Assembly: GCA_964016885.1 (NCBI GenBank)
Contig: OZ024740.1
Span: 55,428,001-55,492,000, forward strand
Length of the DNA: 64,000 nucleotides
Source: Eledone cirrhosa
Taxonomy: Eukaryota
Reading direction: 5' to 3'
A program made the translations under genes and the position numbers. Under the pieces are notes generated by a model. It was not told the origin of the DNA, did not search any database, and worked only from the letters and a program-made list of their open reading frames with translations. This document shows, piece by piece, positions 13,597 through 46,018 of the stretch (position 1 is its first letter; every line of letters starts with the position of its first letter).

Positions 13597-13833
13597 GTTG
13601 TTTTGTTTAAAATGAAATGTTGGGTACAAAACCCCAATAACTGGTTATTTAACCCCGAAGGGCCAAATAACGGACAGAAAGACCCCTCTCACGAGGAGGA
13701 GGGTGTCTTTATCAACAATTTGGTTCAAGTTTTAAACAATTTACAATTGTTTTAACGGTTAAAAATTACTATACCTTACAGAGTCGAGCCTCCGTCAACC
13801 ATGGCATTCAATAATAATAATAATAATAATAAT

Positions 13834-14504
13834 GATCTGAAATCGGAGACTGAAGGACTGATTATATCGGCACAAGATCAGTGTCTGCCAACAAAAAATT
13901 ACCAACCAACATAATAAAAAATGGGTGCAGCCCATTATGCCGTGTATGCAAAAAACAATCAGAGACCATTGACCATATAATTTCAATGTGCAGTCCTATA
14001 GCTCCAACCGAATACCTAAACAGGCATGACAGAGCTGCACAATACATACATTGGATAATGTGTAAGCATTTTGACCTGCCCCATCAAAAGAATTGGTGGG
14101 AGCATCAACCACCTCCCATACTTGAAAAAGATCACATCTCAATCTTGTGGAACTTTAGCATCCAAACAGACCGAAAAATAGATGCAAATAGACCTGATAT
14201 AATATTGAAAGACTTTCAAAAGAGGGTATGCCTGCTAATTGATATGTCTGTTCCAATAGACAAGAATGTATCTATAAAAACATTAAAAAAATTGAGCAAG
14301 TATAAGGACCTGGAGATAGAAATTGGAAAAATGTGGAAATTGAGAACTAAAACAATACCAGTGGTTGTAGGCGCTCTGGGAATGATACCTAAGGGGTCTA
14401 ATGATTACGTATCGCAAATCCCAGGAAACCCGCGTATAGGAGAAATACAAAAGATAGTACTAATGGGAACTGCCCATATACTAAGGAAGATTCTGTCAAT
14501 ATAA
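13834..14504 (+). pseudogene. C-terminal CCHC + PD-(D/E)xK REL endonuclease fragment of R4/Dong ORF
   Basis: ORF 13881-14504 plus an upstream frameshifted segment; no RT domain. Confidence 0.85.
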
Positions 14505-14648
14505 GTACATCACAAGTCTAAACACTAAAGATGCATGTGTGAATATGTATGTTCTTTCTTGAACATGGCGGACCTTGTTGTCTCTTGAGGTCACTGGTTG
14601 TGACTTGGTGATAAGTTGTATGAACATAGAGCAAGATAAATGCAACTG
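13834..14648 (+). mobile_element. 5'-truncated R4/Dong-clade (REL endonuclease) non-LTR element, copy 1, followed by a (TAA)n tail at 14649-14700
   Basis: DLKSETEGLIISAQDQ then, after a frameshift, CRVC..ETIDHIISMC, RHD, RPDI..LIDMSVP..K..KY, IPVVVGALG; 3'UTR ends in TAA repeats; preceded by (AAT)8. Confidence 0.9.
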
Positions 14649-14962
14649 TAATAATAATAATAATAATAATAATAATAATAATAATAATAATAATAATAAT
14701 GATTTCTTTATTAACCACAAGGGTTTACATAAAGTAGACATTAAGGACAGTGCAGGACAATGCAGGACGGTACAAATGGGCATTTCTGCGTGTAAAAAAA
14801 CAAAAACAGAGGATGTAACAAAAATAACAATGAAAATAACAATGAAAAATTCCCCAATAGGGGGGAGACTTCGGAGGGACATTTGTGGAGAAAGCCCAGT
14901 AAAAAGCCACAATGACCCTGACCACCAAGGCAAGTGCCCTCTCCCAGTTTTCCACCTTTAGT

Positions 14963-17900
14963 TTACAGATATATACTCAGAGTCGGCCCATTCACTCGGG
15001 CCATTCTTGCTTCTCTCACCCATCTTTCAACAAAATGCTGGGAAGAGAGCACTTCCTTCTCTACTCTGATTTTCCTTTTCAAATGAAATTTGAAAAAGTC
15101 AATCAGAGCATCACCGAAGAGGTAAGTGCTCGTCTTCAGCCCTTTCAAACGTGTCCACCATACTATCTCTTTCGCCATGGCCACCAGACAGATAAAAACT
15201 GCCTGCCCTTCCCGGCTAAAGGAGGAGGGCGGGGCAATCCTCACGATAGACTCAGATGATAGCTGGATCCGTCCTAAACGCGACAGCAGGTGTTCGACAT
15301 AAACCCACAAGTCAGCAATTTTCGGACACTGGACGAGTGCGTGCAGGACGGTTTCGTCGCCCTGCGCGCATCTCGGACATGCCCGGCTGACGGCACCTCC
15401 ATGCCTGTAGAGTTTATCCCGAACTGGCAAGGCTCCTCGGTAGCACTGCCAGGCCAGAGATTTCTGGAAGTTGTCCATAGGCCCTGGCCCGAAAGTTCTT
15501 CCGAAGAGATTGGCTAGTTGATTTTCGTCGACGCCTAGAGTTTCCCCAAGTACGTCGTCGCTCTTCCCCTCCACTAATCCTCTATAGAACGCCGAGGTGG
15601 AGTTTCCACCGATCACATTGCCCGATTGGTCGAGGGCTGTGAGCGCCTGAAGACATTCCAGTCTCCAGGCGCTCCCTCTCGGTCTTCGCTTGACCCAGGA
15701 CTGCAGCTCCGTCAAGGAAACGAGCTGGGGAAAAACGCGTCTAGCAAACGGCGACCACACCTGATCACCGTCGAGGAAGAGGTGGAGATGTCGTAGCCTG
15801 AGCGCGTGCCTGCGCATCATCAGCCACGGCATGCCCAGCCCTCCACGTAGCGGGTGTTGACAACAGATGGACCGCCTGACCATCGGAGCACGTCCCTTCC
15901 ACAAAAAGCGAAAGAGCAAACGCTCCAGCGCAGTCAGGCGAGGCTTAGGACAAGTTACGACGGTTAGGCGGTAGCAGATGACAGACGCGATGTACGCGTT
16001 AGCCACCTCCGCTCGACCTTTCAGGGATAGCTTCCTCTCCGCCCATTTCTGGGTGAGAGAAGCCACCCTGCTCGTCACCTCGTCCCAGTTTTTGTCCGTC
16101 TGGAGGTCCGGACCGAACCAGACCCCTAGCAATTTAACCGGTCCGTCCGTCCAGCGTCCGACGACGCTGTTGGACGGCATGGACCTGCCTCTCCAGGTGC
16201 CGAGTTGCAGGCCCACTGACTTTTCCTGGTTGATCATTGCTCCTGTCACCGCTTCGTATTCTCTTAGTGTAGTGCCGATCGCCTCGATGTGTTTGGCGTT
16301 CGACACCACTACGGTGACATCGTCCGCATATGCTGACACGGATCTTCCGCATCCTAGTTCGCGCGGGACTCCCCTCAACGTCTCCAGTTTGTGCAGTAAT
16401 GGCTCGAGAGTCAATACGTACAAGAGGGACGAGAGGGGACATCCTTGGCGGACCGAGCGCATGAGGTTGAGCGGTTCCGACAGGTGACCGTTCACTCTCA
16501 CCACAGAGCAGATGTCGCTGTGCATGGCAGCGATCCAGCCTCTGAAGACGGGCCCAAAGCCAGCCGCCCTCAGGACTGCCGCTAGGTAACGATGGTCGAC
16601 CCTATCGAAAGCTTTCGACTGATCTAAATTGATCAAGGACCCACCCGTGCCAGGTTCCCTAGCTACCCTCTCTACGATGTATCGCATGAGGTGGAGGTTG
16701 TCGTGGATGGATCTGTCTGGAATGGCGCATGTCTGCGCCTCTCCCACCAGACCACCAACGACAAGCGCCAACCTCTTTGCTAGCACCTTGGCCAAAATCT
16801 TAAACTCTGTGTTTAGCAGAGTTATGGGCCGGAAATTGTCTATGTTATCCCCCTTGTTCGGATCCTTTCTCAGCAGTGCCACCGCTCCTCGGCTCACAGA
16901 ATTGGGAATTCTCCCGTTCTGTTGCCAGTTGCAGTAGACGTCCGCCAAGAGGCCTCCGAACAAGTCTGGCATCTGTACGTAAAGTTCATAGGGCAGACCA
17001 TCCAAACCAGGCGATTTACCCCTTGTGCAGCCAGTCATTGCCTCCCTTACTTCAGCGGCTGTTATCGGCTTTTCGCAACACTTCGCCTCAGTGGCCGAGA
17101 GCCGCGGCAGTCCGTCGAGGTAGACACTAAAGTCCATCCCTCTACCCGGCCCACCGCTGCCCCCGAACAGCTGAGCGAAGTGTCGCTGAAAAGCTTCACA
17201 CATTTGCCCGGGATCGAGTAGCATGCGCCCGTCGTGGTCCACCAAAGACCGGATCGTGGCTTTGTTGCCACGACGCGCCTCCGCCACTCGGGCCCATTGA
17301 ACGGCTTTCGTCCCCTCGTGTCTGAGAGCACGCACCCTAGCTCTGACAACGCAGCCTTCGTGCTTTGCATTGAAGAATTGGTCAAGGGCCAATTTCGCCG
17401 CAAGCACGTCGGTCGCAATGCCTTTGCTAAGCGCCTCGTCTAATTTTCTAACTAGTTCTCCCTCTGCTCTATTTTTCTCTATTGCTAAAGCCTTACTAAA
17501 CCTAATCGATTCTATTCTAATCGCTCTTTTCAGAGCAAACCACCACTTGTTGTTGACGATGGCCCCCGTCAACGCCCGCTTAACTAGTTCGCTAATCCGG
17601 TCTCTGTAGGCCTTGCGCGCTGGTAAGGACGCGTTTAGCTTCCAGTAGCCGGGTCCTCGTCTATGAAGCCTATCTAAGTCAAGCACACAGATCACGAATT
17701 TGTGGTCCGTGTAGCTGACTATCTTGAATTGTGGACAGCCTATGCTAGACCTATCTATTTCCCTACAAAATACTCTATCTAGATATGATCTGGATGACCC
17801 TATGCGGTTTGTCCAAGTCCACATTGGCACATTCGGGAAATCCAATCGGTACCTGTCAGACAGTTCAAAACGCCTGAGCAGGTTGGTGAGGCTCTTGCAC

Positions 17901-44767: not shown

Positions 44768-44890
44768 TTTAAAGGTGGAAAACTCGGAGAGGGCACTTAC
44801 CCTGGTGGTCAGGGTCACTGTGTCCTTTTAATGGGCTTTCTCCACAAATCTCTCTTATTATTTTTATTATTATTATTATTATTGTTATTA

Positions 44891-45033
44891 CTCTTTGAGT
44901 CTCAGTCATTGATGTTAGTTAACTGGAAAGTTTGTTGAGATGAATATCAAGCCACTACCTGCAGTCTCAGATATTCAGGACGTATCGGAGGGTTCTTGCT
45001 GTTCCCAGCAAGCATGCCTTTTGAAGCGTTCCA
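44891..45033 (-). mobile_element. Short 3'-end fragment of R4/Dong family 2
   Basis: Matches 45070-45212; flanked by ATT repeats. Confidence 0.8.
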
Positions 45034-45069
45034 ATTATTATTATTATTATTATTATTGTTATTGTTATT

Positions 45070-46018
45070 CCTTGAATCTCAGTCATTGATGTTGGTTAAC
45101 TGGAAAGTCCGTTGGATTGAATATCAAGCCACTACCTGCAGCCTCAGATATTCAGGACGTATCGGAGGGTTCTTGCCGTTCCAAGCAAGCATGCCTTTTG
45201 AAGCGTTCCAAAAAGCGTGAAGGGGCCGATTTTCTTTAACCATCCCTGGAAACCTTTGGAGATAGTCCCCAGCGCGCCTATGACAATCGGAATCACTTTG
45301 ACTTCATGGCAGTTCCAAATCCTTTTCACCTCCCACTTTAGGTCCTGGTATCGGTTAATTTTCTCCCTCTCCTTCTCTTGCACTCTCGTGTCGAACGGGC
45401 AGGCCACATCCACAATCAGACACGATCTTTTTTCTTTGTCCACAACCACCAGGTCAGGTCTATTGTGTTCCAGTTTTTTGTCCGTCTGTATCCTAAAATC
45501 CCACAGCACCTTCACCTGACTGTTCTCCATCACCGCCTCTGGCCTATGCTCAAACCATTTCTCAGAATGTGGTAGATTGTTTACTTTGCACAGGTGCCAG
45601 TGGATCACCCTGCCCATCACATCGTGTCTCCAGCCCTTATAGTGGGTCTGGGCTAGGTGTTTACACTCGGACACAATGTGAGCCACAGTCTCCTCTCTCT
45701 CTCCACAGATCTTGCACAGTGGGCTAGCCTCCTCCTTGTAGATATGGTGCTTCAACCACTTCGTTTTGAGGGCCTGCTCCTGCGCAGCCATTAGCATTCC
45801 TTCTGTAGCCTTTTTGAGGTCTCCTCTTCTCAACCAGTTCCATGTCTGTGGATCTCTAAATTCAGTTTTCTCAAAGAAGGTACTATGAAGGGAGTATGAA
45901 GGGATTTTCCCTTAAGGCTGCTCTTCCTCCTTGATGTTATTTCCTCCTTGGGTATCCCCTGGCCTACTGTCCCCTCCTTCAGTACAGCTCTGAGCATTGG
46001 CTCCTTACTATAGGTCAC
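45070..46018 (-). mobile_element. 5'-truncated R4/Dong-clade element, family 2
   Basis: DLKKATEGMLMAAQEQAL, CKIC..ETVAHIVSEC, RHD, RPDL..IVDVACP, IPIVIGALG; TAA repeats at both ends. Confidence 0.9.

Follow-up and report, generated by a model that had tools for sequence, protein, structure and literature searches.

Tx1-like and Dong-like retrotransposons occupy shared AAT microsatellites in opposite directions in the genome of Eledone cirrhosa

Why should two unrelated classes of long interspersed nuclear element (LINE) lie in one microsatellite in opposite directions? The question is raised by 64,000 nt of DNA from Eledone cirrhosa (positions 55,428,001-55,492,000 of contig OZ024740.1, here C1, of assembly GCA_964016885.1, whose size is 2.996 Gb), the whole of which we call the window. 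Elements of a Tx1-like and of a Dong-like class are set here between runs of AAT, which read as ATT on the other strand. In the array on the left, five minus-strand copies of a family that we term Tx1A are joined by (AAT)7-17 linkers, and two plus-strand 3' pieces of a Dong family, DongA, stand between them; the cluster on the right has one plus-strand Tx1B and, around it on the minus strand, three pieces of another Dong family, DongB. A preliminary description of this DNA had this anatomy right, and proposed that the tail of each element lengthens or recreates the target of the other in a self-perpetuating niche.

Here, we argue that Tx1-like and Dong-like LINEs each target (ATT/TAA)n in one fixed direction, the two being mutually opposite, probably since their endonucleases cut different strands, that repeat is left on both sides of the insertion, and that Dong likely adds repeat at its 5' junction by stuttering, which would supply targets for both. 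Taken as a whole, we consider this reading probable. The antiparallel rule itself follows from two fixed-direction targeters.

Target and direction across the genome

Independent insertion events in the window are fewer than its appearance suggests. The two DongA pieces (13834-14649 and 20748-21563, plus strand), each 5'-truncated, 816 nt long and carrying a zinc knuckle, part of a restriction-like endonuclease and the 3' untranslated region (UTR), show 0 differences over 816 nt, the nearest other copy among 30 being 98.6% identical, and hold in common a private variant that only these 2 of 100 listed copies have. They are therefore counted as one insertion copied locally, not as two events. 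Around them, the adjoining Tx1 copies remain identical for no more than ~100 nt and ~24 nt, and the Tx1A copies of the array are 32-64 substitutions per 6 kb apart. On the right, Tx1B (39154-44855, plus strand) is decayed and its final ~154 nt of 3' UTR are absent, and therefore the (ATT)n behind it (44856-44890), at the 3' end of a DongB piece, is not its tail. In these two points the preliminary description is corrected, and genome-wide counts have to supply the independent events.

Since tails alone cannot prove targeting, we examined 5' flanks. Genome-wide patterns counted ~1715 full-length Tx1A 5' ends with a near-unconstrained flank (the pattern excludes copies with C at one flank position), and (ATT)3 precedes 1679 of them; an ATT-sense flank was found at all 100 listed Tx1A 5' ends, with (CTT)n or (ACT)n as an occasional Tx1 target. 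Full-length Dong 5' ends number 1458 genome-wide. Among 100 listed Dong 5' ends none has an ATT-sense run, and nearly all are preceded by TAA or GAA runs. Truncated Dong copies keep their own 3' ends, and their 5' truncation points vary and mostly abut (TAA)n.

Direction was read from a census of all perfect AAT runs of at least 21 nt in C1:1-17.54 Mb (n = 111). Relative to the ATT sense, Dong was minus at 48/48 flanks and Tx1 plus at 35/36; a short interspersed nuclear element (SINE) was plus at 22/23 and a CR1-like LINE at 12/12. We show that 83 of the 84 Tx1 and Dong flanks fit the antiparallel rule (binomial P = 9 × 10−24), which rules out random orientation and extends to the genome the earlier proposal that the two classes use opposite strands of one shared microsatellite, (ATT)n for Tx1 and (TAA)n for Dong. 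In blind 10-kb stretches from other contigs, one of 19 held two Tx1-Dong tail-to-tail pairs, both opposite, and the other 18 held no pair. The claim of strictly opposite orientation holds relative to the strand of the tract; it does not hold between neighbours as such, which may run in the same direction if a compound tract contains a reversal of the repeat (locus L153 and, probably, L194).

Repeat length at Dong heads

Empty and filled versions of one site can be compared in X1, a multicopy repeat with an inner ATT tract (809 left-flank and 812 right-flank matches; L301-L330 sampled). The panel comprised the first 30 left-flank loci and those of the first 100 with a distant or unlisted right flank. 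X1 was filled in 20 of the first 100 copies, the filling starting with a Dong 3' end in 10, with Tx1 in 8 and with the SINE in 2; Dong was minus in every case, Tx1 and the SINE plus. Perfect runs in the empty copies (n = 44) have a median length of 24 nt (29 nt in the first 30 loci), with one run of 70 nt and two of 38-41 nt. At the 70-nt copy (L398, 1-601), recombination between the tracts on either side may have removed an element. The length test left out filled sites in which more than one element lay or a flank was lost. The six single Dong insertions with both flanks have left and right runs summing to 75, 41, 70, 82, 77 and 26 nt, more than in the 44 empty copies (P = 0.0005); in 6/6 the longer run is that of the 5' side, which by itself exceeds the empty copies (P = 0.01). 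The two single Tx1 insertions gave sums of 41 and 59 nt.

The same asymmetry appears at junctions taken with no length filter. Runs at full-length Dong 5' ends have a median of 56 nt (n = 30) versus 25 and 32.5 nt at Dong 3' ends (n = 30 each; P = 0.0009), and those of Tx1A have medians of 26.5 nt (5') and 31.5 nt (3'; P = 0.28). A joint fit over 268 tracts gave a length fold of 1.76 for a full-length Dong head, 1.27 for a truncated head, 1.13 for a Tx1 tail (t = 2.0) and 1.01 for a Dong tail. Furthermore, 4 of 30 Tx1A 3' ends, those of off-target copies, have no ATT run, and therefore the (ATT)n tail of Tx1 is target, not cargo, with at most one unit carried. These values do not support the proposal that tails lengthen or recreate the other element's target, and place the effect at the Dong head.

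The heads also differ in composition. By eye, AAG or GG was counted within the last 20 nt of 22 of 100 listed Dong 5' flanks; in a set of 20 heads picked by eye, of which 19 were read, 9 have at least four AAG units, and 7 of these 9 lack an AAG run at the tail. At several picked heads the first bases of the element are repeated, with (AAT)n between the repeats. A GAAGAAG motif at the start of Dong is the likely template for the AAG runs. Where Tx1A occupies these tracts, its heads are precise. The stuttered first bases and (AAG)n at Dong heads point to reiterative synthesis.

A mechanism can be outlined from target-primed reverse transcription. Because this process nicks the strand opposite the sense of the element, Tx1 (sense ATT) is predicted to nick the AAT-reading strand and Dong (sense TAA) the ATT-reading strand. 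Insertion leaves repeat on each side, as observed, so that targets are renewed, and the Dong polymerase, at the end of its template, would jump repeatedly between the first bases of the element and the upstream repeat before second-strand priming. The SINE would be mobilised by Tx1 proteins, CR1 tails and repeats with inner AAT tracts would seed new sites, and arrays would grow by nesting in a limited tract pool and by local copying. The R2 polymerase offers a likeness, with untemplated bases, microhomology and duplications reported at R2 5' junctions (PMC2718515); the difference is that in a simple-repeat target the junction process appears to yield tens of bases of new microsatellite, and hence new target. 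In Bombyx, Dong RNA is reported to self-cleave free of upstream TAA (PMC3774820), and therefore 5' repeats need not arrive with the RNA.

Could the lengths arise with a shared target and fixed directions, and no added synthesis? Dong might prefer long tracts and cut near their downstream end, or tracts at heads might expand later by slippage. The empty X1 copies of 70 nt and 38-41 nt, the two short Dong-filled sums and the longer tracts at full-length than at truncated heads would all fit; however, 4 of the 6 filled sums are at least 70 nt whereas 43 of the 44 empty copies are at most 41 nt, which would need a ~20-fold preference, target choice fails to explain why (AAG)n and repeated first bases occur at heads only, and the precision of Tx1A heads in the same tracts also speaks against it. 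We consider this alternative unlikely.

Several points nevertheless weigh against growth by stuttering and against the breadth of the scheme. The clean filled sites compared numbered only six for Dong and two for Tx1, and the Dong-filled sums of 26 and 41 nt lie inside the range of the empty copies. Given the 70-nt empty copy, some of the excess could stem from a strong preference of Dong for long tracts. Expansion of tracts may also have followed insertion; if it was linked to transcription, a larger effect at full-length heads is what it would give. Nearly all sampled loci lie on C1, the rest of the genome being represented by genome-wide counts and the 19 stretches, and tract density in the census region is one third of that of the genome; relative to tracts, Dong 3' ends are about as frequent in the census (27 listed to 111) as in the genome (14,750 to 64,580). 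Finally, the clade names Tx1 and Dong/R4 are putative, being assigned from domain layout and target, with no named Tx1, Dong or R4 sequence among the homologues.

A bolder form of the stuttering scheme, which we advance tentatively and place somewhat short of an even chance, is a self-renewing niche. The Dong reverse transcriptase (RT) would make (TAA)n, at times (AAG)n, at the head in a telomerase-like manner; the unrelated Tx1 would have converged on the other strand and brought the SINE with it; and together they would account for most long AAT microsatellites of the genome and would build antiparallel arrays, either class giving read-through antisense to its partner. The niche of the preliminary description is retained in that repeat on both sides renews targets; its mutual dependence is not borne out, as both classes enter X1 tracts and CR1 tails, which are of neither's own making, and each lies beside its own kind about as often as beside the other.

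Crowding and the pool of AAT tracts

Adjacency of the two classes was the other part of the earlier proposal. The first 30 Tx1A 3' ends meet a Dong 3' end in 13 cases, a Tx1 5' end in 6, the SINE in 3, nothing recognised in 8 and a same-direction Dong in 0 (neighbour tallies are a manual reading; automatic labels misassigned ~10 rows via low-complexity matches). With a chance of ~0.0004 for a Dong end within 150 nt, the adjacency is ~1000-fold above chance, and the expected enrichment is thus confirmed. A shared target by itself, however, leads one to expect 0.30-0.33, given a Dong tail at the end of 25 of 111 census tracts and an inserted Dong in 10 of 100 X1 copies, and 13/30 does not clearly differ from this (P = 0.08-0.16). 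Adjacency is therefore mostly explained by crowding into the 64,580 long tracts of the genome, and attraction beyond the shared target is not needed. Two comparisons pull the other way: 13/30 exceeds the bare Dong-tail share of 0.225 (P = 0.009), and Dong is found at 9 of 20 Tx1 tails versus 5 of 68 left flanks that are CR1, SINE or unassigned (P = 0.0003). Some residual Tx1-Dong excess would then reflect extra affinity, age matching or regional clustering.

Like-with-like neighbours are about as common as cross-class ones. Among 30 Tx1A heads, 12 lie behind a Tx1 tail and 9 behind a Dong head (2 of the 9 being the duplicate of the window), and 11 of 30 Dong heads lie behind a Dong tail. This parity bears on a two-partner loop in which each 3' tail builds the target of the other element and the two attract each other specifically. 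The 13 tail-to-tail meetings with no same-direction Dong, the excess of Dong at Tx1 tails over other left flanks and the slightly longer tracts at Tx1 3' ends are what such a loop would give, but it sits poorly with the ATT-less Tx1A 3' ends, the absence of a length effect at Dong 3' ends, the equal frequency of like-with-like neighbours and the filling of X1 tracts, of other origin, by both classes. Special attraction is unsupported, and we regard the loop as improbable.

That the Dong pieces are passengers, carried by antisense 3' transduction in Tx1 read-through or by unit duplication in unequal exchange, either of which would yield opposite orientation with no targeting by Dong, is very improbable: the identical DongA pieces do show that local copying occurs, but Dong copies keep their own 3' ends with varied 5' truncations and TAA upstream, 1458 full-length heads exist, the array Tx1A copies are 32-64 substitutions per 6 kb apart, and Dong fills X1 without any Tx1, which rejects transduction as a general cause, though it could apply at single loci such as the array of the window.

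The tract pool is large and shared with other elements. Three boundary patterns counted 31,790, 18,172 and 14,618 perfect AAT runs of at least 21 nt, 64,580 in total (reversed control patterns gave 64,581), beside at least 14,750 Dong 3' ends and at least 3,818 Tx1 3' ends, those of Tx1A having been counted by pattern matching across the genome. Of the 111 census runs, 55 are in contact with Tx1 or Dong; the number rises to 69 with the SINE and to 77 with CR1 as well, all of these being lower bounds, as some unassigned flanks resemble family variants missing from the element library. The suggested tie between the elements and the abundance of AAT microsatellites is supported by the first of these shares.

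Because the SINE has a Tx1-like 3' end (its terminal 25 nt resemble the 3' ends of five Tx1 families) and ATT on both sides, it is likely moved by Tx1 proteins; it also runs in the Tx1 direction. It is very common and forms tandem runs (window 27646-27870; L018, L119, L121, L133). The available text of PMC4758252 holds nothing on this SINE. The CR1-like LINE, with an (ATT)n tail, stands at 12 of 111 long AAT runs (L111, L115, L116, L134-L136, L140), and its tails would seed new tracts. In some CR1 tails, Dong or the SINE inserted afterwards. Targets are also spread by multicopy repeats that contain an inner ATT tract, of which there are at least three, X1 being one. Contigs of three sequencing runs cover both elements, none spans the tracts, and they allow no inference on transcription.

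Known systems, element families and layout of the window

SART and TRAS are both R1-clade APE elements, with an apurinic/apyrimidinic endonuclease. A close known likeness is that of SART1 and TRAS1 of Bombyx mori, two families of retrotransposons without long terminal repeats that lie in opposite directions in one simple repeat, the telomeric (TTAGG/CCTAA)n (PMC7265360). The partners here differ in having unrelated endonucleases (APE versus restriction-like), so that they are not a pair of two APE elements, and the target is a dispersed microsatellite at ~64,580 places, not a telomere, joined by the SINE and CR1. Insertion of Dong in (TAA)n is described from insects, molluscs and cnidarians (PMC3812793, PMC7998251), and the Dong elements of Bombyx, Anopheles, Biomphalaria and Darwinula resemble ours in their single open reading frame (ORF) with RT and restriction-like endonuclease and in their (TAA)n target; different are the at least 14,750 copies here, and the repeat gain and stutter at the 5' junction, which are absent from the available parts of known Dong accounts. 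Bombyx Dong and R4 also have a 5' ribozyme like that of hepatitis delta virus; at the Dong 5' end here there was no Rfam match, and a rough descriptor, run without a positive control, found none.

Microsatellite specificity is likewise known from Tx1 families, as Kibi, Koshi and crocodilian families target (TC)n, (TTC)n, (TTCC)n and (TTTC)n (PMC4494074); the target here is (ATT)n. Such families can move SINEs (PMC4494074, PMC4640811). Crocodilian SINEU, in the available account, prefers the same target as Tx1-Mar and is thought to be moved by it; here, by difference, the target common to both is a microsatellite, and the last 25 nt of the SINE are recognisably Tx1-like. Cephalopod repeat surveys report Dong-R4 and L1-Tx1 elements as abundant and recently active and, in the text available, are silent on targets (PMC13282606, PMC8967140). 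In the accessible parts of the open-access literature, which does not include Repbase, we found no (ATT)n-specific Tx1, no sharing of tracts between Tx1 and Dong and no repeat gain at Dong heads.

What the preliminary description put forward as an undescribed system is thus new in part. New are a pairing across element classes in a dispersed microsatellite, a Tx1 specific for (ATT)n together with its SINE, the high proportion of AAT tracts involved and, likely, the growth of repeat at Dong heads; the antiparallel rule has its telomeric precedent. On this reading, the origin of a major microsatellite class and the lengths it reaches are tied to active, site-specific retrotransposition, beyond slippage alone, with growth placed at the head of an element, a place not previously looked at. 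Convergence in target specificity could be studied cleanly on this pair of endonucleases, which are unrelated and read one trinucleotide repeat from opposite strands. AAT markers in such a genome would lie mostly at transposon ends, and antiparallel packing predicts mutual antisense RNA.

Three features of the Tx1 clade, namely an APE-RT-zinc finger ORF2, a two-ORF layout with a CCHC motif in ORF1 and a target-sequence preference, are found in Tx1A. Its ORF2 matches Pfam Exo_endo_phos (the APE endonuclease), RVT_1 and a C-terminal zf-RVT; ORF1 (702-714 aa) has a CCHC zinc knuckle, Cx2Cx4Hx4C, read in the translation, and no Pfam match. No named Tx1 is present among 102 protein matches and the cluster members, the sole named animal match being a Ciona pol-like protein (27%). 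DongA and DongB, in full-length natural copies from elsewhere in the genome, are single-ORF elements of 4.9 kb and belong to different families, with blastn likeness only in the first 600-760 nt. The DongB ORF (1141 aa) encodes an RT followed by a CCHC knuckle and a PD-(D/E)xK endonuclease, with no APE domain, which is the R4/Dong layout. Its best PDB matches, by sequence and by predicted fold over the whole length, are R2 proteins, and its predicted structure has a confident four-helix unit at 47-117, with no zinc finger in that region; the R4/Dong clade is described as having an N-terminal SANT/Myb-like domain without zinc fingers (PMC7998251). No named Dong or R4 member occurs among 120 listed protein matches, the cluster look-up and the atlas. 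Intact ORFs are present for both classes. A reading of DongA and DongB as non-autonomous elements of fixed length was rejected; copies continue upstream, and the apparent end is the edge of the element library.

Some further features of these families deserve mention. Tx1A and Tx1B (window 39154-41400; L103-L104) have ORF2 and 3' UTR in common (~96%) and unrelated 5' UTRs and ORF1 starts, a swap of the 5' module. The 5' UTRs of Tx1A (window 13690-13809, minus) and DongA (L095/L096) have a similar AT-rich motif ~45-90 nt from the start, behind a short GC-rich head, perhaps a convergent internal promoter. The DongB 5' UTR contains a 330-nt tandem duplication, 97% alike (L091, element positions 165-818). 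The Dong tails at L031, L043, L062 and L416 all have behind them one and the same beginning of a third Dong-like coding sequence, which suggests either a family whose members contain an (AAT)n tract or a derivative with a fixed start.

The left array opens with the 5' part of Tx1A copy 1 (1-1702, minus, as are all five), which is cut by the left window edge, its remainder lying further left; the other four are whole (~6.03 kb). An (AAT)10 linker (1703-1732) joins it to copy 2 (1733-7761), in which ORF1, with the zinc knuckle, and ORF2, with the APE, RT and zinc-finger domains, are open, and (AAT)7 (7762-7782) joins copy 2 to copy 3 (7783-13809). An (AAT)8 (13810-13833) forms the head-to-head junction of copy 3 with the first DongA piece, and (AAT)17 (14650-14700) the tail-to-tail junction of that piece with copy 4 (14701-20723). 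The second DongA piece lies between (AAT)8 (20724-20747) and (AAT)15 (21564-21608). Copy 5 (21609-27624) has a frameshift in ORF1, and (AAT)7 (27625-27645) links its 5' end to the 3' end of the SINE (27646-27870, minus). Beyond this lies the 3' part of Tx1C (27890-29900, minus), an older Tx1-like family 65% identical to Tx1A.

In the right cluster all DongB pieces are minus and 5'-truncated. An (ATT)n (38805-38859) marks the 3' end of the first (38860-39027, ~170 nt), whose 5' junction, head-to-head with Tx1B, is (ATT)42 with one interruption (39028-39153), the longest tract of the window. Tx1B has its own 5' region and an ORF2 94% like that of Tx1A. Behind it come the second DongB piece (44891-45033, ~140 nt), an (ATT)n (45034-45069) that links it to the third (45070-46019, 950 nt), and, at the 5' junction of the latter, (ATT)n followed by (TAG)n (46020-46196).

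Elsewhere in the window, minus-strand fragments of an old Tx1-like copy, 67-76% like Tx1A and with no AAT tract remaining, lie at 35300-37320. The stretch 52000-58700 contains degraded reading frames of RT and endonuclease-like type, which have no Pfam match and presumably resemble Penelope elements; inverted pairs lie there at 56002-56474 and 56597-56877/58418-58698.

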